This document shows, in pieces, positions 10,186-36,722 of a stretch of 64,000 nt of DNA. The position numbers and the translations under genes are program-made. The notes below the pieces were generated by a model. The model had not been told where the DNA came from, searched no databases, and worked only from the letters and a program-made list of their open reading frames with translations. Source of the stretch: a virus (taxonomy: Duplodnaviria > Caudoviricetes); the IMG/VR virus record IMGVR_UViG_3300014208_000024, positions 256,001-320,000 of that record; one strand, given 5' to 3'. Numbering within the stretch: the first letter of the stretch is position 1; each line of letters starts with the position of its first letter.

Positions 10186-10748
10186 TGAAGTCTTTTCTTA
10201 GAAAAATAATAAAGGAGCAAATTAATTTGCTGTTTGAATCATTTGAGATGAACAATAACAAAAGAAGTTATGTTCCAACCAACGAAGTTTCAAAAACAGC
10301 TCAAACAGCATTAGGGGCTATCAATATAGCTAAACAAAAAGGCATTCAATTATCAAGTATAGATGAAACAGGGAACCAGGGAAGTGGAAAATTAAAAGCA
10401 AGACAGCTTTCTCAAAAACAAAAACAAAGTTTTGTTGAGATGAAAAGGTTGAAATCTTTTTTTGAATCTAACGCTTCTAAAGTAGAAGAGGAAAGAAAAA
10501 AAATTGGAATAATTCAACAAAGAAGAGGTACTGTTGACGAAATGGTTAAATCTAATATGTTATTGGTGTGGAACTTACACGGGGGAGATGCGTGTAAAAA
10601 ATGGGTAACATCAAAATTGTCAGACGCACACGAACAGGGAAATAAGAAAAAAGATAGACTCCGCCAATCTGGTGGAGCTTACAAAAATAATGGAATGGGA
10701 GTTTTTCGTACTCAATATGATCCATCACAACAAAGAATTCATAGATAA
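10185..10748 (+). CDS. Hypothetical, possibly head-associated protein
   Basis: LRKIIKEQINLLFE tag; WNLHGGDACKKWV resembles a LWGGDAG..W motif recalled from phage head proteins. Confidence 0.7.
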   Translation: MKSFLRKIIKEQINLLFESFEMNNNKRSYVPTNEVSKTAQTALGAINIAKQKGIQLSSIDETGNQGSGKLKARQLSQKQKQSFVEMKRLKSFFESNASKVEEERKKIGIIQQRRGTVDEMVKSNMLLVWNLHGGDACKKWVTSKLSDAHEQGNKKKDRLRQSGGAYKNNGMGVFRTQYDPSQQRIHR

Positions 10749-10806
10749 TTTTGTTTTCTTATTTTTTTTTCTTATCTTTGTTTTTTAAACTTTAAAAATT
10801 ATAATT

Positions 10807-11379
10807 ATGAGTGAAAAAAACTATTCTGCTTTACAAAATGTTGTAACTCCAGAAATTGCAATCGAAATTAGAGAAAAAGATACTGTTTTTGCTGGAGGCG
10901 CTAAATTTATGGATGCTGATGATGAGCTTTTACAAATTACAAACTGGATAAGATTAAATGCAAATCATAATTCAGAAATTAAGCCTGAAAGAATTAAATA
11001 TCTATATACCACAACTATTAAAAAGGATGGTGGAAGATATGCTCTTGGAACACTGTCTTTAAGATCTGAGGTGGAAAAAATGGTTAATGATGATTTTGAT
11101 TATATCCTTTCTGTGCATTATAAATCATGGAAAGAATTAGATATAGAAAACAAAGTAATTCAGCTTGATAAAATCCTCTGTGGAGTTGATATTGACATTG
11201 ATAATAAAACTAAGAAAATGTCAGTAGATAGCAAAGAATATATAAGCAACTTAAGACATTATGGGCCAGAAAAAGTTCTTAATAGTTCAGAAATAGTTGA
11301 TATGTCTATAGACAGAATTATTGGACAAGAAAAAGAAGAAAGAAAAGTAAATAAAGAAAGAGGAAAAAGAAAAGAATAA
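10807..11379 (+). CDS. Phage metallopeptidase-like protein lacking HExxH
   Basis: IKYLY..G....R.......DFDYILSV....W.ELD..K..QLDKILCGV aligns with the family LDHELCH motif, with the His and Glu replaced. Confidence 0.5.
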   Translation: MSEKNYSALQNVVTPEIAIEIREKDTVFAGGAKFMDADDELLQITNWIRLNANHNSEIKPERIKYLYTTTIKKDGGRYALGTLSLRSEVEKMVNDDFDYILSVHYKSWKELDIENKVIQLDKILCGVDIDIDNKTKKMSVDSKEYISNLRHYGPEKVLNSSEIVDMSIDRIIGQEKEERKVNKERGKRKE

Positions 11380-26859: not shown

Positions 26860-28254
26860 TTAAGATTTGCTAATAAATATTATTTTCTTTATTTCTTCTG
26901 AATTTCCAGAATCTAAAATTCTTTTAACCATATCTGGATTTTTGTAAAATTCCTTTTCTAATCTTGCAATAGCCATCCCCAATTCTCTTTCTTGGTATCC
27001 AAGTGATTTAAGCAACTCGGAAGGTTGTATAAATTCATTTGCAAGTCTTAAAAAATTGCTTATTTTAATTCTGTCTATGTGACTTATGTTTGCAAAACTA
27101 TATATCATATCTTCTGTCATTGAATAAATTTTTTCGTTTATTTTAGGTTTTGCACTTTTTGCCTTTTGAAGATATAGTTTTTTTATAGAAGAAACAGTGT
27201 TTTCGTTTAAACTTAACAAAGAAACAAGAAAAATAATACAACTTATTTCATCAGTACTATATTTTCTAAAATTTAATTCTTTTTCTATGTTTTTTACATT
27301 ATTGTCTTTTAATAAGTTAGAAACTAAGATTATTGGATTTTTCTCTTCAATAAAATAATTAGCACTAAAAGTTAAATTACCAAATATATATTTAAAAAAA
27401 TCAAAATCTTTTAACAATTCAAGAAAGTGTTTTACGCTTTTTGAACTTTTAATTCCTTTATAAAACTCATCCCTTATTCTTTCCAAAGAAACCATTTTTC
27501 CAGTAGGGTCGGTCAAAGAAGTTCCCCCTTCCCTAATAGCTTCAGCAACATTGTCGGGAATTTTAGATCCCATTTTTGCAGCAAATCTTATAGCTCTAAT
27601 TTTTCTCAATGGATCTTCATCAAATCTATCGGTTGGATTTCCGACGGTGTTAATAACATTGTTTTTAACATCATTTACTCCACCAACAAAATCTAATACA
27701 TCTCCTTCAAAACCATTTTCTGCAATTCCAGTTATTTCATAAAACAATGCGTTGATCGTTAAATCTCTTCTTTTTGAATCTTCCTCTGGATTATCTACGT
27801 ACTCAACACTATCTGGTTTTCTTCCTCCTCCAACATCTTTTCTAAATGTTGCCAATTCATATCTGTTTCCAGATTTTGTTACTATAAATTGAATTGCAAA
27901 TGATTCTCCAATGTGCAAAATATTGGAAACGAAAGGTGCCTTTTCGAATAATGTTCTTATTTGATCTGGAAAAGCATTGGTGGCCAAATCAAAATCTTTT
28001 GGCACATCAATAGTTGTATCCATTGGGTTCTTTTGTAATTTTATTTCGTTTTTTACAGCGTCTCTTACGGCACCACCAACAATATACATTTTAAAATTAT
28101 TCGCAAGTAATATTTCTCTTATTTTTAAAATATCTTCTTTGTCACTTGACGCCACTGGCATATTAAGAGGAAACCTTTTTTCTCCATTATCTTCCTTTAA
28201 AAAATTCTCAAGTAATATCTTTCTTATTTTTTTTCTGGCAATTTTTTCTTCCAT
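26860..28254 (-). CDS. cca: CCA-adding enzyme / tRNA nucleotidyltransferase (class II)
   Basis: YIVGGAVRD..KDFDLAT, EDSKRRDLTINA, RFDEDPLRKIRAIRFAAK. Confidence 0.9.
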   Translation of the reverse strand: MEEKIARKKIRKILLENFLKEDNGEKRFPLNMPVASSDKEDILKIREILLANNFKMYIVGGAVRDAVKNEIKLQKNPMDTTIDVPKDFDLATNAFPDQIRTLFEKAPFVSNILHIGESFAIQFIVTKSGNRYELATFRKDVGGGRKPDSVEYVDNPEEDSKRRDLTINALFYEITGIAENGFEGDVLDFVGGVNDVKNNVINTVGNPTDRFDEDPLRKIRAIRFAAKMGSKIPDNVAEAIREGGTSLTDPTGKMVSLERIRDEFYKGIKSSKSVKHFLELLKDFDFFKYIFGNLTFSANYFIEEKNPIILVSNLLKDNNVKNIEKELNFRKYSTDEISCIIFLVSLLSLNENTVSSIKKLYLQKAKSAKPKINEKIYSMTEDMIYSFANISHIDRIKISNFLRLANEFIQPSELLKSLGYQERELGMAIARLEKEFYKNPDMVKRILDSGNSEEIKKIIFISKS

Positions 28255-28351
28255 AAACAACATTTTTTATAAATATGAAAACTTTTTAGTAATTTTTACG
28301 TTATTATTCAAATAAAGTTATTATATTTGTATAAATAATTTTAAAAATTAA

Positions 28352-28639
28352 ATGGAAACAATACAAAAGGAAACAATACAAAAGGTAAATCTTCAACCCG
28401 TTGCATCAGTTAGAAAATGGGACACAAAAAGAATTAAAGCCTATATGGTAAGAATTCAAAAACATATTTCTTTTTTAGAATCTGGGAAACCATATGATAA
28501 TGAAGATCATTATGGTGAAAATCGTCAACCTTTATCTCAGGAAAAAATAGAAAATCAAGAAGGAATTGTCCTGCAAAAATTCAAAAATTATAAAGAAGAA
28601 TTAAAAAAAATTCTTGAAGGGAGAGAACATATTGAATAA
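28352..28639 (+). CDS. Hypothetical protein
   Basis: 95 aa ORF with upstream TATATTTG. Confidence 0.7.
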   Translation: METIQKETIQKVNLQPVASVRKWDTKRIKAYMVRIQKHISFLESGKPYDNEDHYGENRQPLSQEKIENQEGIVLQKFKNYKEELKKILEGREHIE

Positions 28640-28676
28640 TTTTTCGTATAAGATAGTAAAATATAAAAATTTTATC

Positions 28677-29876
28677 ATGAAAACAAAATCACCAGAACCG
28701 ATTAACAAAGATTCAATTCTTTGGGCAGATTTATATAAATTTACCATGACTTGGGCAATTATTAAAAACTTCCCATCTGCAAAAGTTAGATATGAATTTA
28801 TAGACAGAAACAATACAGTGTACCCAGATGGTTTTGCAGTGGAATTGCGTAAAATAGTTAATGAATATCGCAATAAAAGATTATCCATACAAAGAAAAAA
28901 AGAATTTTCAGAAAAATGCACATTTTTGCCAGCTGTATTTTTCGACTTTTTAGAAGGATATAGATATGACCCCAGCGAAGTCGGAATAATTCAAACAGGA
29001 GGTAAACTATCTATTCAAATTGCAGGATATTGGTATCGAACATGTCTTTGGGAAACAACGTTAATGGAAGACATTTGTGAATTGTATTATAATATGACGG
29101 GACAAAGTGATGATAATGTAGATATTAAAAATTCTCTTGAAAAAACTGAAGCAAAAGCTAACTTATTTTATATGAATAACGCACAAATCGTGGATTTTGG
29201 AACAAGAAGAGCAAAATCAAAAAACGTTCATATGCAAATAGTTGATGTGTTGTCAAATTCCCTTTTGTATACAAACTTTATCGGGTCAAGCAATGTAGAA
29301 CTTGCATTATACAACAATATAAAACCTATTGGAACTTATGCTCATGAATGGGTTTCTGGTATAGCTTCGATGTTCGGATATGCTCATGCCAATAGAATTG
29401 CTATGGAATATTGGGTTCAAACATATAATGGAAATTTAGGCATTGCACTGACTGATACATTTACAACAGATTCTTTTTTAGAAGATTTTGATTCTAAGTA
29501 TGCTAATCTTTTTACTGGAGTTAGGCATGATAGTTATGACCCTTTTGTTTTTACTGATAAAATGATTGATCATTACAAAAAACTTGGAATAGCACCAGAA
29601 ACAAAAACAATTGTATATTCAGATGGATTGAACCCCGAAATGGTAATAAAAATTCAGAATTATAGAAAAGGTGAAATTAAAAAATCATATGGAATTGGAA
29701 CTAATTTAACAAATGATATTAAAGATGTTAAACCAATGAATATAGTTATTAAACTTTTGGAAATAAATGGCATGCCAGTCATTAAATTATCAGATTCTTT
29801 GACAAAACACATTGGAGATGAAGAAACAATTAAATTTGTTAAATGGCAAATTGAACAACGTTTAAAAAATAAATAA
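28677..29876 (+). CDS. pncB: Nicotinate phosphoribosyltransferase
   Basis: DLYKFTM, DFGTRR, GTYAHEW, ALTDTF, GVRHDS, IVYSDGL, YGIGTNLTND, IKLSD. Confidence 0.93.
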   Translation: MKTKSPEPINKDSILWADLYKFTMTWAIIKNFPSAKVRYEFIDRNNTVYPDGFAVELRKIVNEYRNKRLSIQRKKEFSEKCTFLPAVFFDFLEGYRYDPSEVGIIQTGGKLSIQIAGYWYRTCLWETTLMEDICELYYNMTGQSDDNVDIKNSLEKTEAKANLFYMNNAQIVDFGTRRAKSKNVHMQIVDVLSNSLLYTNFIGSSNVELALYNNIKPIGTYAHEWVSGIASMFGYAHANRIAMEYWVQTYNGNLGIALTDTFTTDSFLEDFDSKYANLFTGVRHDSYDPFVFTDKMIDHYKKLGIAPETKTIVYSDGLNPEMVIKIQNYRKGEIKKSYGIGTNLTNDIKDVKPMNIVIKLLEINGMPVIKLSDSLTKHIGDEETIKFVKWQIEQRLKNK

Positions 29877-30653
29877 TTTTTTTAATCTACCTTTTTTCCA
29901 TCCCAATTTTACATATAAATCTAATTCGTTTTTTATAACACGTTTACTTTCCTGCTTTTCTGTGTTATAAATCCATATTTTCCCAATTTGAGAGTTACTC
30001 ATTCTTTCTTTGGTTTCATTAGAATAAATATTATCTTTACCCTTATTCCACGGCAACTTTCCTTTATTACATTCAGAACATTTTCTTTTAGACTCATCTG
30101 AATGGTGTTTTCCAAACATTGGGTTGTTTTTTCCATAATTTGATCTAATATTTTTTCTTGCTTTGTCTGATATTGGAACACCTTTTCTATATTCACTTAA
30201 TTTATTTTTTACTTCATCTGAATGATGTTTTCCAAATCTTGGAGATTTTTCACCAGACATTTTTTCTCTAAGCTTTTGTTTAGTTTCTTCTGTATGAGTT
30301 CTTCCATACATTGGATTTCTTTTTCCTGTCATCATTTCTTTTCTCTTTTGTGTAACTTCTTTTGTCATTTTCTTTCCACAATTTGTATATACAACAGAAT
30401 TTCTTATGTTGTATCCAACTTCTTTGTTTATAGATTTTAGTTTTTTAATCCAATAAACTTCTAATTCTTTAATTTCATCTATCGTTAACGCAAAAGATTC
30501 TTCAATGATTTCTTTTTTGAAGTTTTCTTTGCCATACTTTTTAATAGCATATTTAATTGCTGTACCAGAACCTAAATAATTAGGATTATTTTTTGTATCT
30601 AGTCCTATATATATTTTCCCATTGATTAAATTCGTTGTTTTATAAATTATCAT
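29862..30653 (-). mobile_element. Free-standing GIY-YIG homing endonuclease with NUMOD3 repeats
   Basis: MIIYKTTNLINGKIYIG..YLGSG; repeated NPMYGRTHTEETKQKL and NPMFGKHHSDESK. Confidence 0.92.
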
Positions 30654-30805
30654 AAGATTTTATTTTTATATTCATTTTCTATCCACTCTTTAATTTTATT
30701 TTCAATAAACTTAGATTTATTCAAAGACATTTTAGAACTAATTTTTTCAAATTTTTCATATAATTCCTTGTTTATTGTAAAAGTTTTCTTTATTTTTGTA
30801 TTCAT
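30650..30805 (-). CDS. Ribbon-helix-helix (CopG/Arc-like) protein, 51 aa, missed by ORF track
   Basis: MNTKIKKTFTINKELYEKFEKISSKMSLNKSKFIENKIKEWIENEYKNKIL*; ATGA overlap with the HEG start; paralog at 49561. Confidence 0.75.
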   Translation of the reverse strand: MNTKIKKTFTINKELYEKFEKISSKMSLNKSKFIENKIKEWIENEYKNKIL

Positions 30806-30903
30806 TGTTTTGTATTTATTAATATTTATTTATAAATATAAAAAAATTTTATTTTAAAGAAAACATTTATAAAAAAAATCGTATAAATTAATAAATCACT
30901 AAC

Positions 30904-31494
30904 ATGCCAAGAATTGTTAAAATAAAAAAAGAAAAAAGAGTTTACGACGGATATACAAAAGTTGATGAAGCTCTAATTGAAGATACATTAGAAAGTGGTA
31001 AAGTATCTACATACTCAAGACAAAAAGTAGTAAGGCCAGATGCTGTTGCTGGTTTAATTTATAACACTGATACAGAATGCGTGGTTCTTGTAAAGCAGCA
31101 TAGGTATCCAACTCATTTTGGAAACAGAAATGGATTCATATATGAAGCTATGGCTGGAAAAATTGATTCTGGAGAAAACCCAAAACAAGCTTTTATTAGA
31201 GAAAGTTTTGAAGAGGTTGGATATAGGCTTAAAGAAAAAAACGTAGAATATTGTTTTAACTGCTTTACTACTCCAGGATATTCCACAGAAAGAATTCATT
31301 ATTTTTTAGCAACAGCTACAAATAAAGATAAAATAAAAAATGCTGGAGGAGGAATGGAAGACGAACATGAAAATATAGAAATTTGTGAATTTCATTATCT
31401 TCAATTTAGAAGTATGATGGACACAATGGAAGATGCTAAAACAAAATTACTTGCATATGAAGCACATCACAGAAAATTGTTTGACAGGAAATAA
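30904..31494 (+). CDS. Nudix hydrolase (ADP-ribose / NDP-sugar pyrophosphatase-like)
   Basis: AGKIDSGENPKQAFIRESFEEVGY Nudix box; TPGYSTERIH; EHENIE. Confidence 0.88.
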   Translation: MPRIVKIKKEKRVYDGYTKVDEALIEDTLESGKVSTYSRQKVVRPDAVAGLIYNTDTECVVLVKQHRYPTHFGNRNGFIYEAMAGKIDSGENPKQAFIRESFEEVGYRLKEKNVEYCFNCFTTPGYSTERIHYFLATATNKDKIKNAGGGMEDEHENIEICEFHYLQFRSMMDTMEDAKTKLLAYEAHHRKLFDRK

Positions 31495-31503
31495 AAATTA
31501 TTT

Positions 31504-31734
31504 ATGGGAAATTTATTAAAAAACAACGAAAGAGATAATATTGTGCAAAATTCGGTTATTGAATCTGTAACAGGATATTCTTGTCCTAATTGTGGGGCAA
31601 TATGTTGTGACAAAACATTTATATCTAAAACAGAAATAGAATTTAACGAATTTCCAAATCCACATTACAATTGGGATGAAATTCATAAATGCCAAAAATG
31701 TGAAACTCTTTATCTTTTACATAATGGTACATAA
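31504..31734 (+). CDS. Small Zn-ribbon protein whose stop lies in the attC R'' box
   Basis: CPNC..CQKC; stop TAA within TACATAAC. Confidence 0.7.
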   Translation: MGNLLKNNERDNIVQNSVIESVTGYSCPNCGAICCDKTFISKTEIEFNEFPNPHYNWDEIHKCQKCETLYLLHNGT

Positions 31735-31829
31735 CGGCTGGCGGTATGGTTTAGTAAAGGCTGACCACTACCGACCAATCGAAGAAATAAACTTTAAACA
31801 GCCTTTATTAACTATACCGCTTGTTAGCG
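31729..31829 (+). mobile_element. Integron attC-like recombination site
   Basis: ACATAAC..GCGGTATGGTTTAGTAAAGGCTG pairs with CAGCCTTTATTAACTATACCGC..GTTAGCG, with one extrahelical base and an unpaired spacer next to TAAC/GTTA. Confidence 0.65.
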
Positions 31830-31868
31830 TTTCGTTTTTGAGCGTGGGCGGTGCAAAACTTAAATAAA

Positions 31869-32258
31869 ATGTCACATAAAATAGATAAATATTTTCCATT
31901 TTTAGGGATTGACTTCTTAGGTAAAAAACACAAACTTAAAGAAAAAGATGGAAATATGGGTTTGTGTCCAAATGGTAAATGGAAACATTTTGTCTCCATT
32001 AAAGATAATGTTCTTTGGGAAGCAAAGAAAGTCCATTATGTTGGAAATAATGGTGTTGGTAGTATTTGTGGAAGGAATAATCGTTCATGTTTTTTAAAAA
32101 TTACAATAGATAAAAACAAAGTTGATTGTGAATTTTGTTTAGAAAAAATGAAAGACTATATGTATTATTGTGAAATTCATGGGTTTATTGATGCTAAAGA
32201 TGTAACTAATGACGAGAAATGTGACTACTGTAATTGTGCGTTGGCAAATGAACGCTAA
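31869..32258 (+). CDS. Cys/His-rich hypothetical protein, putative gene-cassette ORF
   Basis: Preceded by GTTAGCGTT; ends in the complementary AACGCTAAC containing the stop codon. Confidence 0.65.
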   Translation: MSHKIDKYFPFLGIDFLGKKHKLKEKDGNMGLCPNGKWKHFVSIKDNVLWEAKKVHYVGNNGVGSICGRNNRSCFLKITIDKNKVDCEFCLEKMKDYMYYCEIHGFIDAKDVTNDEKCDYCNCALANER

Positions 32259-32365
32259 CTATTATATATCATGAGTAAATTCTAATCTATTAATTTTTAA
32301 GTTATTATAACTACAATAATTAAAAAAATATAAAGATTTATAAACAAAACATTATATTTACAACA

Positions 32366-32542
32366 ATGAAAACAAACAAAAAATAATTTAAAGAGTTGGG
32401 AAAATTCATTGAAAAGAGAAATGGTACGAAATTTACACTTAAAAAACTTATTAAACAAAGTGAATTTACTTGCACTATTCAAAAAATATACGAAAACTTG
32501 AAAGCTCCATTTTTAATTATAAATGATTTAAAACAAAACTAA
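32366..32542 (+). pseudogene. Small ORF with in-frame TAA at codon 7
   Basis: MKTNKK*FKELGKFIEKRNG..DLKQN*, ends 1 nt before the nadE ATG. Confidence 0.35.
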
Positions 32543-32543
32543 A

Positions 32544-33365
32544 ATGAAAAAGTTAGATTATTCAAAAGTAGAAAAGCATATTGTTGAATGGTTAAAGGAA
32601 TATGCTAAAAATGCAAAAGTAGAAGGATTTGTTATTGGAATATCTGGCGGAGTTGATTCGGCAGTAACATCTACTTTGGCTGCAAAAACAGGATTGAAAC
32701 TATACACAATCCAAATGCCAATTAAGCAGAAATCAGAAGAAGTAAACAGAGCAACTTCTCATGTTTATTGGTTAGTTGAAAACTTCCCAAATGTATTTCC
32801 TTTAACTTGTGATTTAACCAATACTTTTAATTCCTTTTTATCTGAAATTGAAAAATCTGAAAACAAAGAAGGACAAAACATGGCCGAAGCAAATACAAGA
32901 TCACGCCTGAGAATGGTAACCTTATATTACCACGCTTCAATAAAAAAATGCTTGGTTCTTGGAACTGGAAATAAAGTAGAGGATTTTGGTGTTGGATTTT
33001 ATACAAAATACGGAGATGGTGGAGTAGATTTATCTCCCATTGCAGATCTTATGAAATCAGAAGTTCGTGAACTTGGGCGTCACATGTGCATATTGAAAGA
33101 GCTTTCTGAAGCCATTGCGACTGATGGTTTGTGGGATGATTCCATGACTGATGAAAAACAACTCGGTGCATCTTATGATGATTTAGAATGGGCCATGGAA
33201 TGGATTGCTAATAATCCATTAGGATTTAACTTCTCTACAGATCAATTCGATGCATTACCAAAAAGGCAAGCAAATGCTGTAAGTATATATAAAAAAAGGT
33301 TTTTCGCAAATCAACACAAAATGGAACCAATTCCAGTATGTAATCTAAGTGAATTAAAAAAATAA
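32544..33365 (+). CDS. nadE: NH3-dependent NAD+ synthetase
   Basis: IGISGGVDSAV, NTRSRLRMVTLY, GTGNKVE, FYTKYGDGGVDLSPIADL; no glutaminase domain. Confidence 0.95.
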   Translation: MKKLDYSKVEKHIVEWLKEYAKNAKVEGFVIGISGGVDSAVTSTLAAKTGLKLYTIQMPIKQKSEEVNRATSHVYWLVENFPNVFPLTCDLTNTFNSFLSEIEKSENKEGQNMAEANTRSRLRMVTLYYHASIKKCLVLGTGNKVEDFGVGFYTKYGDGGVDLSPIADLMKSEVRELGRHMCILKELSEAIATDGLWDDSMTDEKQLGASYDDLEWAMEWIANNPLGFNFSTDQFDALPKRQANAVSIYKKRFFANQHKMEPIPVCNLSELKK

Positions 33366-34055
33366 TTAATTTTTATATTTAAACTTAAATCCCTTGTGAT
33401 GTTTTTGCCTGCCCTTCATAACTCTTATAACAGCACTATCGTCTAAACCCAATTGCTTACACATATATTTAATTCCTAACCATTCATCTATGTAATTTTC
33501 ACATAAATCCATTCTTATGACGCACTTAATAGTTGGCTGATTCTTTCTGTTAATCTCAATAAATTCTTTAGATCGTTTTTTTCCATAAGAATAATTGTCT
33601 TTTCCAAAACGTGGACATTTTACTCTTAATATATCTTTTGTTTTTTCAGAATGGTTTTTTCCATAAAAAGGATTTTTTTCTCCAGTAACTCTATCTGTAT
33701 GAAACTTCCTATATTTTTTATTTTTCCAAAGCTCCCTCACCCATTTAGAAGTATACCCTTCTCCACCATCACTATAATTAACTAAATTAAAGCCCCATGA
33801 AATAAATTGTGAAATCCAAAATTTTTCCCAAAATTTCCACTCAAAAAAATCAACCTCTTCTATTAATTCTATCTTTGGACACTGTTTGTTTTTTAATAAA
33901 GAATTTATCCAATTTTTTTTATGTTTATTTGTACATCTTTTAATATCCCAAACGTGATAATACAATCTCTTTTCTAATGACATTTCTGTTTTTCCAACAT
34001 ATCTAATAAAATCAGTATTCGGGTCTATTAATGTGTATATTTTTACTTTTTTCAT
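33366..34055 (-). mobile_element. Free-standing GIY-YIG homing endonuclease with NUMOD3/NUMOD1-like C-terminus
   Basis: KIYTLIDP..IRYVGKT..KRL..H; LVNYSDGGEG; NPFYGKNHSEKTK; GFKFKY. Confidence 0.88.
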
Positions 34056-35215: not shown

Positions 35216-36277
35216 ATGAACACTGAAAATGTAAAATTAGATTTTCATGATTTGAGAATTAAACCTGAGAAAACTAGTAGTATAACATCCAGAAGTCAAA
35301 TAGACCCATACTACCATGTGAATAAAAAAGAGTTTTTGCCAATTTTTACAGCCCCTATGGACACTGTAATTAATAATGAAAATGCAAAATTGTTTGAAAA
35401 AAACAAAATTCACACAATTATTCCTAGAGGAGAAAATCCTCCTAGGTGGGGAAGTCAATTTCGATTTAAATCAGTTGGATTAGATGAATTCATTTATCAA
35501 TATATAAATACTGACGAAAATGAAAATCATTTTCAATCTGCATTTACAATATATATTCTTATTGACATTGCAAATGGACATATGGAAAAACTTATTGAGG
35601 CCACTTCAAATGCAAAAAAAATATATGGAGAAAAAATGGTTTTAATGGTTGGAAATGTTGCAAACCCAGAGACATATAAAATATTTGCAGAAGCTGGAAT
35701 AGATATGGTTAGAGTTGGAATAGGAAACGGAAACGCATGTTTAACAACTAAGCAGACTACAATTGGATATCCAATGGCATCATTAATTAAAGAGTGTTGC
35801 GAAATAAAAAAACAAAACGGATATTCAACAAAAATTATAGCAGATGGTGGAATGAAAGATTTTTCAGATGTAATTCTTGCACTTGCACTTGGTGCAGACT
35901 ATGTAATGATCGGATCTCTTTTTAACAAATCTCTTGAATCTTGTGGGGACACCTATTTGTTTGACAAAATAAAAATAAACCAATATTCTAATTTTGCAAA
36001 ATGGCTTTTCAAAAAGAAGTTTAAACTTACAAAAAAATTCAGAGGAATGTCAACCAAAGACGTGCAAAAAAAATGGAATAAAGAAAAAATTAAAACATCT
36101 GAGGGAATTTCAAAAAAACAAAAAGTTGAATATACAATAAGTCAATGGGTAGAAAATTTTGAAGACTATTTAAGATCAACAATGAGTTATTCAAATGCAA
36201 AAAATCTGAATGAATTTATTGGAGAAGTTGAAACTATACAAATTAGCGATAAAGCATACGAAAGATTTAACAAATAA
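35216..36277 (+). CDS. GMP reductase / IMPDH-family oxidoreductase
   Basis: PIFTAPMDTV, DIANGH, VGNVA, RVGIGNGNACLT, IIADGG, FRGMST, SEG. Confidence 0.88.
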   Translation: MNTENVKLDFHDLRIKPEKTSSITSRSQIDPYYHVNKKEFLPIFTAPMDTVINNENAKLFEKNKIHTIIPRGENPPRWGSQFRFKSVGLDEFIYQYINTDENENHFQSAFTIYILIDIANGHMEKLIEATSNAKKIYGEKMVLMVGNVANPETYKIFAEAGIDMVRVGIGNGNACLTTKQTTIGYPMASLIKECCEIKKQNGYSTKIIADGGMKDFSDVILALALGADYVMIGSLFNKSLESCGDTYLFDKIKINQYSNFAKWLFKKKFKLTKKFRGMSTKDVQKKWNKEKIKTSEGISKKQKVEYTISQWVENFEDYLRSTMSYSNAKNLNEFIGEVETIQISDKAYERFNK

Positions 36278-36281
36278 TAAT

Positions 36282-36722
36282 ATGAAAAAAAACAATCCAA
36301 ATGTATTCCTCGGAGGAACATGCAATGATTCCACCTGGAGAGAAAGATTAATTAAAGACCTTAAAGTACCTTACTTTAATCCAGTTGTTAAGGATTGGAA
36401 CGAGGAAGCTCAAAAAAAAGAAATAGAAGAAAGAAAAACAGCAAAGTTTGTTCTTTATGTAATAACACCCCTTATGACTGGAGTTTATTCAATAGCAGAA
36501 GTAATAGATGATTCAAACAAAAGACCAGAAACTACACTGTTTTGTGTTTTAGAAAAAGATAATGATAAAGAATTTGAAAAATTTCAAATAAAATCTCTTA
36601 ATCAAGTTAAGGAAATGGTCAAAAAAAACGGATCAATGGTTTTTGAAAATTTATCAGAAATAGCAAAATTCTTAAACAACCAGGAAGATAAAGATAAAAT
36701 GAAAAAACTTGCTGGTGTATAA
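36282..36722 (+). CDS. Nucleoside 2-deoxyribosyltransferase-like protein
   Basis: VFLGGTCNDSTWR..YFNPVVKDW..GVYSIAE. Confidence 0.8.
   Translation: MKKNNPNVFLGGTCNDSTWRERLIKDLKVPYFNPVVKDWNEEAQKKEIEERKTAKFVLYVITPLMTGVYSIAEVIDDSNKRPETTLFCVLEKDNDKEFEKFQIKSLNQVKEMVKKNGSMVFENLSEIAKFLNNQEDKDKMKKLAGV

Follow-up and report, generated by a model that had tools for sequence, protein, structure and literature searches.

Can a phage gain anything from the first and the last enzyme of the Preiss-Handler route to nicotinamide adenine dinucleotide (NAD+) when the enzyme of the step between them is missing from its genome record? The question is raised by the window analysed here, the 64,000 nucleotides that make up bases 256001-320000 of an IMG/VR phage record (IMGVR_UViG_3300014208_000024; 372,283 bp, 28.7% G+C), in which genes for a nicotinate phosphoribosyltransferase (NAPRTase; PncB), a Nudix hydrolase and an NAD synthetase (NadE) follow one another. 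The locus is a nadD-less form of the Preiss-Handler module already described from jumbo phages, with a conserved NudK-like Nudix hydrolase. On balance, it probably serves as an auxiliary NAD+ supply module that sustains NAD+ by way of the NadD of the host, in a giant phage of a probable Bacteroidota host. The three genes are as follows.

28677-29876, plus strand: pncB, nicotinate phosphoribosyltransferase of the type I, ATP-coupled PncB family (PF17767, PF04095, NF003704, TIGR01514)
30904-31494, plus strand: Nudix hydrolase of the NudK/NudF nucleoside-diphosphate-sugar clade (PF00293, TIGR00052)
32544-33365, plus strand: nadE, single-domain (ammonia-type) NAD synthetase family enzyme (PF02540, TIGR00552)

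All three are intact, and their presence here, first proposed in an initial annotation of the window, is confirmed by family cut-offs, motifs and uninterrupted open reading frames (ORFs). PncB combines an N-terminal PF17767 domain (NAPRTase_N) with the PF04095 catalytic barrel and lies above two curated NCBIfam cut-offs (NF003704, 412.7 vs 379; TIGR01514, 388 vs 269.55); models of Nampt-type and of type II NAPRTases score much lower on it than the PncB models. Its best solved relative is the NAPRTase of Porphyromonas gingivalis (2im5, E 2e-82), with 1yir and 1vlp also matched, and its histidine motif GT-Y-AHEW aligns with the same motif in 2im5 and 1yir. The histidine of this GT-x-AHEW motif is the phosphohistidine that couples the reaction to ATP. 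PncB is the sole NAPRTase-family gene in the record.

NadE is a single-domain protein of 273 aa with the PP-loop SGGxDS (as SGGVDS) and no glutaminase domain. It matches PF02540 (E 4e-46) and exceeds the TIGR00552 cut-off (163.4 vs 63.65), and stays under that of the full-length equivalog model NF010587 (181 vs 255). Its nearest cellular homologues are those of Flavobacteriaceae, at 53-60% identity. Homologues at 45-50% identity also occur in T4-like phages of Synechococcus, Prochlorococcus and Pelagibacter that have no PncB match; in the annotated records these marine-phage genes often adjoin sugar methyltransferase or UDP-glucose dehydrogenase genes, and their products may act on a substrate other than nicotinate adenine dinucleotide (NaAD).

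The step between PncB and NadE, adenylylation of nicotinate mononucleotide (NaMN) to NaAD, has no gene in the record. Throughout the 372 kb, no match to the adenylyltransferase family of NadD, NadM and NadR (PF01467) was found at E values up to 1, and there was none to isochorismatase/nicotinamidase (PF00857), to the N-domain of the phosphoribosyl pyrophosphate (PRPP) synthetase Prs (PF13793), to type I phosphoribosyltransferases (PF00156) or to PnuC (PF04973). Searches by tblastn with NadD of three related phages and with the nicotinamide mononucleotide adenylyltransferase (NMNAT) of Sinorhizobium phage Phosso returned nothing better than E 0.3 in the record, and no nadD remnant between the Nudix gene and nadE. 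A hidden adenylyltransferase was also considered in the small ORFs at 28352-28639, 31504-31734 and 31851-32258 and rejected, no family reaching the Pfam or NCBIfam cut-offs; the first and the last of these were taken through an Atlas search as well. The complete phage Preiss-Handler set of PncB, NadD and NadE is not present in the record. The initial annotation had noted that NadD/NadM and a nicotinamidase were missing from the window and had proposed a search of the full genome for nadD/nadM/nadR, pncA and prs; the absence holds for the whole record, and the route that it had drawn, from ADP-ribose to ribose-5-phosphate and PRPP and from nicotinate through NaMN and NaAD to NAD+, is incomplete there. 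As the record has no adenylyltransferase, nicotinamidase or Prs, the host must supply NadD, any conversion of nicotinamide to nicotinate, and PRPP.

Homologues of the Nudix hydrolase form a phage family in two groups. Group A (L007, L008, L009, L011 and the IMG/VR records G016 and G017; Nudix 44-51% identical to that of the window) has an operon with overlapping starts and stops in the order pncB, YciA-like 4HBT thioesterase gene, Nudix gene, nadD, nadE and YAcAr (SLOG) gene, and its NadD lies above the TIGR00482 equivalog cut-off (163.7 vs 112.45). Group B (the window, L002/G013, L005/G014 with 291 kb at 91% completeness, G015 and the P0141 contig; Nudix 61-78% identical) has the order pncB, Nudix gene, variable slot, nadE, the slot being taken up by a membrane-like ORF of 72 aa, by a CorA-like gene or by various small ORFs. 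Counting that of the window, four IMG/VR records have a Nudix of at least 67% identity, and every one of them keeps pncB, the Nudix gene and nadE; two of the four are rated 91-100% complete. PF01467 was found nowhere in any of the four group B IMG/VR records, that of the window included. Judged from conservation, the nadD-less set is a stable, selected state and not a decaying remnant: the genes are retained in four of four records, the catalytic Nudix residues are invariant, and NadE identity within group B stays at 60-78%. The overlap of pncB, the 4HBT gene, the Nudix gene, nadD and nadE in the sister group links both the Nudix and NadE with NAD synthesis. Groups A and B look like sister clades, no outgroup with the same operon having been found, and the change may have been a loss of nadD in group B or its gain in group A.

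Two further members of the group A operon were located. The YciA-like 4HBT acyl-CoA thioesterase gene lies between pncB and the Nudix gene (L007 7595-8020; L011 5598-6008), and the YAcAr (SLOG-family) gene lies 3' of nadE (L007 10528-10863; L011 8127-8462). No homologue of either was found in the genome of the window.

The grouping of pncB, nadE and Nudix genes is not a chance of one lineage, since clusters with such genes recur independently in other phages. In the cultured jumbo phage Phosso (PV764938), a stretch of 7 kb holds nadE, pncB and a Nudix gene together with genes for an NMNAT, for a hydrolase of the isochorismatase family and for a deoxyribosyltransferase-like protein. About 3 kb from its pncB, Agrobacterium phage Atu_ph07 carries a PF00293 Nudix gene that is annotated as an ADP-ribose pyrophosphatase (ADPRase). 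In the 735-kb phage LR756501, pncB and nadE are two small genes apart (L014 4947-7885), and in LR756500 pncB is flanked by a deoxyribosyltransferase-like gene and has an ADP-ribosylglycohydrolase two genes away. For LR756501, Li et al. 2024 (PMC11662467) gave nadD alone; should that gene be genuine, the phage would have a complete Preiss-Handler set that was overlooked in their survey.

The phage probably infects Bacteroidota, to judge from its homologues. The nearest solved PncB is from Porphyromonas, the nearest cellular NadE is from Flavobacteriaceae, and the nearest cellular Nudix homologues sit on bacterial chromosomes and are present in 11 of 12 Flavobacteriaceae genomes; the single chromosomal context examined (P0159) is unrelated to NAD. 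A bona fide NadD was found in each of five Flavobacteriaceae genomes, and four of these five have no strong NAD synthase apart from the phage-like NadE. A NAPRTase-family gene is absent from 8 of the 12 genomes, and an isochorismatase-family gene is present in 7. Complementation between phage and host is suggested by this pattern, in which hosts have NadD, many are without NAPRTase, and a phage-like NadE is their main NAD synthase.

A shared promoter class for pncB and the Nudix gene had likewise been proposed and stands, with an N16 site before the one and an N15 site before the other.

28626-28650, plus strand: promoter-like motif AAC-N16-CGTATA, 27 nt before the pncB ATG
30862-30885, plus strand: promoter-like motif AAC-N15-CGTATA, 19 nt before the Nudix ATG

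The exact AAC-N16-CGTATA form occurs at 7 sites in the window against 0.11 expected, and a regular-expression scan of the genome gave 44 AAC-N15-17-CGTATA sites, mostly 15-40 nt 5' of ORF starts on the same strand; nadE has no AAC-N15/16-CGTATA motif. A protein of 217 aa encoded in the genome contains sigma-70 region 2. A scan of the locus for sigma-70-type promoters found fewer sites than in shuffled sequences and was hence uninformative. The ORF containing pncB extends over 28614-29876 from an alternative TTG at 28614, and the true start is almost certainly the ATG at 28677, because the promoter-like motif lies between the TTG and the ATG and the relatives start at the equivalent ATG.

The identity of the genes, the lack of the middle step in the record, the conservation of the set and the promoter motif are thus shown; from this material we infer the use of host NadD, the substrates of the enzymes and the physiological purpose of the locus. 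The phage PncB would make NaMN from nicotinic acid and PRPP in an ATP-coupled reaction, an entry step that many likely hosts are without. The host's own essential NadD would adenylylate NaMN to NaAD, and the phage NadE, which duplicates the last step of the host, would convert NaAD and ammonia to NAD+. The substrate of the Nudix hydrolase would be a nucleoside-diphosphate-sugar (ADP-ribose or a hexose nucleotide), from which it would release a nucleoside monophosphate and a sugar phosphate, the products feeding nucleotide and pentose pools, or a harmful product being removed. A phage sigma factor probably recognises the AAC-N15/16-CGTATA motifs before pncB and the Nudix gene. Overall, NAD+ would be kept or raised during infection, and NAD-depleting defences could incidentally be blunted. 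Overexpression of pncB raises NAD in Escherichia coli, according to work cited in PMC6128845.

What the Nudix hydrolase contributes depends on its class. It has PF00293 with a full Nudix box and barely passes TIGR00052, the YffH/AdpP subfamily (83 vs 79.55), and it reaches neither the NudK equivalog NF011585 (84.1 bits vs a cut-off of 234) nor the ADPRase equivalog NudF NF008003 (49.4 bits vs 248). Among solved structures the closest is E. coli NudK (YffH; 3o52, E 8e-23), followed by Bacillus-type ADPRases (about E 1e-14) and E. coli ADPRase (1g0s, E 5e-7); identity is 28-33% to NudK and 20-23% to NudF. The AlphaFold model (predicted local distance difference test, pLDDT, 91) has N-terminal strands at 4-43 and a last helix at 178-189, and fits NudK (3o61/3o69) with a template modelling (TM) score of 0.83-0.87, with enterobacterial ADPRases not far behind at 0.75-0.80. 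At the N-terminus of that last helix stands D177-A-K179; D177-x-K179 and the glutamates of the Nudix box are invariant in 14 phage homologues from both groups. Hexose-nucleotide hydrolases are told from ADPRases by an Asp-x-Lys where the C-terminal helix begins (PMC4629899), a rule founded on two characterised enzymes only. The Dunn rule for ADPRases, quoted in the same paper, asks for a proline 15 residues past the last glycine of the Nudix box; here P124 stands 18 residues past G106, in TPGYSTE, and aligns with SPGG-x-x-E of NudK/NudF after a small insertion, but this proline is also present in NudK, so that it does not discriminate between NudK and ADPRase. With its modelled N-terminal beta domain and Nudix fold, its box and its Asp-x-Lys, the protein is predicted to be of NudK type.

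By sequence, fold and Asp-x-Lys, then, the enzyme is nearer to the GDP-mannose hydrolase NudK than to an ADPRase, and the description as ADP-ribose-pyrophosphatase-like given in the initial annotation has to be revised. The same annotation had held a preference of the Nudix for GDP-mannose or other substrates to speak against its route, and it is towards such a preference that the evidence, all of it in silico, now leans. As the enzyme carries the NudK-type marker, recycling of ADP-ribose is unproven. A second Nudix gene of the genome (96363-96698) was considered as the true ADPRase and rejected as MutT-like. It is possible, if somewhat unlikely, that the Nudix of the locus stands outside the NAD pathway altogether, as a NudK-type GDP-mannose or hexose-nucleotide hydrolase for nucleotide scavenging or for shutting down host surface polysaccharide, and that its position is an inherited order within a nucleotide and cofactor island. 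Besides the NudK-like features, its metabolic neighbours fit such a role (genes for a CCA-adding enzyme, dihydrofolate reductase, adenylate kinase, an IMPDH/GMP-reductase-like and a deoxyribosyltransferase-like protein), and so does its standing as a near-universal chromosomal gene of Flavobacteriaceae in a context that, where examined, has nothing to do with NAD. It is harder to reconcile with the sister-group operon, where the start and stop codons of the Nudix gene overlap those of nadD and its neighbours, with its retention in every relative that has pncB and nadE, and with the NAD genes of Phosso and Atu_ph07, to which Nudix genes from other subfamilies are independently linked; the narrow foundation of the Asp-x-Lys rule also counts against it. 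An NAD-related substrate is favoured by the operon context and these independent linkages, and an ADP-ribose-type and a hexose-nucleotide-type substrate are at roughly even odds.

Several points weigh against a supply module that works through host NadD. The NudK-like features of the Nudix sit badly with a purely NAD-centred role. No large phage-encoded consumer of NAD was identified in the genome, which has no NAD-dependent ligase, and the identity of the host is itself deduced from homologues. The phage genome may extend beyond the record, with nadD possibly elsewhere, as the 5' end of the record (region of bases 1-700) cuts an open frame and a contig of 455,767 bp is listed too for the NadE and Nudix of the window; the CheckV rating of the record is 100% complete. 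Finally, the best solved relative of NadE is the Francisella NadE 3fiu (121 bits vs 96 for the next match), which acts as a nicotinamide mononucleotide (NMN) synthetase and only marginally as an NAD synthetase (PMC3376133), so that the substrate of the phage NadE could be NaMN.

If it were, PncB and NadE would carry nicotinate through NaMN to NMN and the host would do the final adenylylation of NMN. Such a route would explain why nadD is dispensable, and two consecutive phage steps are more parsimonious than the first and third without the second. We nevertheless consider it very unlikely. The phage NadE is far closer to the NadE of Flavobacteriaceae, which bear NadD (five of five genomes) and use the standard NaAD route, than to that of Francisella; the same NadE is paired with a NadD-type enzyme in the sister phages; and the phage has neither NadM nor NadR. 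Bacterial NadD enzymes, moreover, generally favour NaMN over NMN. An NMN synthetase was therefore downgraded as a candidate function of NadE, the nearest cellular homologues coming from NadD-containing Flavobacteriaceae, in four of five of which they are the sole one.

A dedicated counter-defence function, as the initial annotation had suggested, would give the genes a different purpose. After cleavage of NAD+ by Thoeris, SIR2 or TIR proteins, the Nudix would use ADP-ribose as a source of the ribose-5-phosphate needed for PRPP, and PncB and NadE would rebuild NAD+ from the pyridine product and rescue replication. Reconstitution of NAD is a strategy already established for phages (NARP1/2, bioRxiv 10.1101/2024.02.11.579819; NARP3, PMC13464706), the authors of the work on phage X1 suggested this role for pncB/nadD/nadE (PMC13384950), Nudix genes recur near phage NAD genes in independent lineages, and LR756500 has its ADP-ribosylglycohydrolase near pncB. 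The chemistry points the other way: NADases release nicotinamide, whereas the PncB family uses nicotinate, and the record has no nicotinamidase, while an isochorismatase-family gene occurs in only 7 of the 12 genomes of the candidate host family. Without Prs for PRPP and without an adenylyltransferase, three of the six steps (nicotinamide to nicotinate, ribose-5-phosphate to PRPP, NaMN to NaAD) would depend on the host while ATP and NAD collapse, and the Nudix is NudK-like. A dedicated role of this kind is possible but unsupported, and we regard it as unlikely. Least probable, and hardly to be expected, is that the nadD-less set is a self-sufficient new route of NAD+ reconstitution that bypasses host NadD by shifted enzyme specificity; PncB might, for example, join nicotinate to a donor derived from ADP-ribose and so yield NaAD directly, or NadE might make NMN and the NudK-like Nudix handle an immune signal derived from ADP-ribose. 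If true, this would add a fourth kind of counter-defence by which phages, here those of Bacteroidota, meet NAD-depleting immunity. The supply module that relies on host NadD is the reading carried forward here.

Two homing-endonuclease genes and a pair of small Cys-rich ORFs break up the NAD genes of the window. The surrounding features are listed below.

26860-28263, minus strand: gene of the CCA-adding enzyme / poly(A) polymerase family (family search)
28352-28639, plus strand: small conserved ORF of 95 aa just 5' of pncB, with homologues at the same place in L002 and L005
29862-30653, minus strand: free-standing homing-endonuclease-like gene between pncB and the Nudix gene, with four NUMOD3 repeats (PF07460)
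31504-31734, plus strand: small Cys-rich ORF of 76 aa (from translation), in the variable slot where relatives have nadD
31851-32258, plus strand: small Cys-rich ORF of 135 aa in the same variable slot, with no Pfam or NCBIfam family
33366-34055, minus strand: second homing-endonuclease-like gene, abutting the nadE stop, with NUMOD3 and I-HmuI NUMOD-like matches
35216-36277: IMPDH/GMP-reductase-like gene (inosine monophosphate dehydrogenase/guanosine monophosphate reductase), kept in relatives beside the adenylate kinase gene
36210-36722: Nuc_deoxyri_tr2 (nucleoside 2-deoxyribosyltransferase-like) gene (family match)

The CCA-adding enzyme gene is divergent and upstream of pncB in every relative examined and forms a fixed landmark of the region. 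For the 95-aa ORF, tblastn finds the homologues in L002 and L005 at E 2e-24; it falls into no family of Pfam or NCBIfam and gave weak leads only in the Atlas search, and it is probably not part of the core, because the group A relative L009 is without it. The NUMOD3 gene at 29862-30653 has no counterpart at this position in L002, L005, L007, L009 or L011, in which the Nudix or the thioesterase gene lies directly 3' of pncB, and is an insertion between pncB and the Nudix gene. The 76-aa ORF has only a sub-threshold Pfam match (E 0.009, under the gathering cut-off) and no similarity to NadD by tblastn, and is also found 3' of the Nudix gene on a 1.2-kb metagenome contig. For the 135-aa ORF the Atlas model is poor (pLDDT 0.55), with zinc-ribbon-like leads only and no Rossmann fold. 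In the distant relative L009 a NUMOD3 gene of 229 aa (10215-10904) has the same size and the same position after nadE as the gene at 33366-34055, which suggests that the 3' end of nadE is a recurrent homing site. The IMPDH/GMP-reductase-like gene is far under every equivalog cut-off (best 138 vs 397). A Nuc_deoxyri_tr2 gene lies a few kb from pncB/nadE in three unrelated jumbo-phage lineages (window 36210-36722; L015 4514-4993, in LR756500; L003 10665-11117, in Phosso; L005 11858-12295) and may be part of phage NAD or ADP-ribose metabolism. At the nucleotide level the DNA of the locus had no match among 50,697 phage records.

NAD+ is a central battleground between phages and bacterial immunity, and three reconstitution routes have been demonstrated experimentally, none of them from nicotinic acid. 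Our literature search found no experiment on a PncB-based phage route and nothing relevant under the names NARP4 or NARP5; neither the NARP1/2 paper (bioRxiv 10.1101/2024.02.11.579819) nor the NARP3 paper (PMC13464706) mentions pncB or nadE, and the 2026 paper on Xanthomonas phage X1 suggests that pncB/nadM/nadD/nadE may counter NAD depletion (PMC13384950). If the set should protect against NAD depletion, the Preiss-Handler route and the phages of Bacteroidota would be added to the known range of counter-defence; otherwise the set would be an ordinary auxiliary metabolic module of an already catalogued kind. In either case, a lineage with a complete pncB-Nudix-nadD-nadE operon and a sister lineage stably without nadD form a natural pair that shows which steps a phage must bring and which are left to the host, and the conserved NudK-like Nudix in an NAD context is singled out as a lead.

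The set differs from the known NAD+ reconstitution pathways, as the initial annotation had stated for NARP1 and NARP2, the required genes of both being missing from the record; NARP3 is excluded as well. For NARP1 (Adps and Namat) there is neither a Prs-like Adps nor a Nampt-like Namat, the only PF04095 protein being of PncB type, and for NARP3 (PnuC and NadR) there is neither PnuC nor a NadR-type adenylyltransferase; the end product of both, NAD+, is the same, and the benefit under NAD depletion might match too. In NARP2, and in NadV and NatV of Vibrio phage KVP40 (Nampt and a bifunctional NMNAT-Nudix), a Nudix activity likewise travels with NAD-synthesis enzymes, but nicotinamide enters via Nampt and NMN and the phage has its own adenylyltransferase, whereas here entry is PncB-type from nicotinate, amidation is needed, no adenylyltransferase is present and the NudK-like Nudix is separate.

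Among individual enzymes, Francisella tularensis NadE (3fiu) is likewise short and single-domain; Francisella pairs it with NadM and is without NadD (PMC3376133), whereas the phage NadE is closer to the NadE that coexists with NadD in Flavobacteriaceae. The phage Nudix has the two-domain fold of nucleoside-diphosphate-sugar hydrolases, its Nudix box and its loop (S/T)PG-x-x-(S/T)-E in common with E. coli NudK and NudF; the phage gene, unlike either of the E. coli genes, has an NAD operon context. The Phosso cluster (PV764938) also brings nadE, pncB and a Nudix gene together within 5 kb, with a deoxyribosyltransferase-like gene nearby. It has in addition an NMNAT (PF01467) and an isochorismatase-family hydrolase, a possible nicotinamidase, and with these two its pathway from nicotinamide would be complete; the Phosso Nudix belongs to the NadM-Nudix/NrtR type and is not NudK-like, and the Phosso PncB is only 28.5% identical to that of the window.

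The closest parallel has been published, so that the novelty claimed for a Preiss-Handler cluster in a phage was overstated. Li et al. 2024 (Microbiome, PMC11662467), in a purely bioinformatic study, counted 174 jumbo phages in which a salvage or Preiss-Handler pathway is complete, described a pncB-nadD-nadE cluster in a Bacteroidota-associated clade and noted the complementarity of phage and host; Nudix genes are unmentioned. Their NAD-jumbo phages (Kuafu_71, PMC11662467) resemble the phage of the window in being jumbo, in their probable Bacteroidota host, in clustered pncB and nadE and in a presumed supply of NAD+. The sister group of this phage has exactly their three genes, pncB, nadD and nadE, within one operon; the phage of the window and its close relatives differ from the NAD-jumbo phages in being without nadD, so that the pathway is not self-sufficient, and in having a conserved NudK-like Nudix as an integral part of the set.

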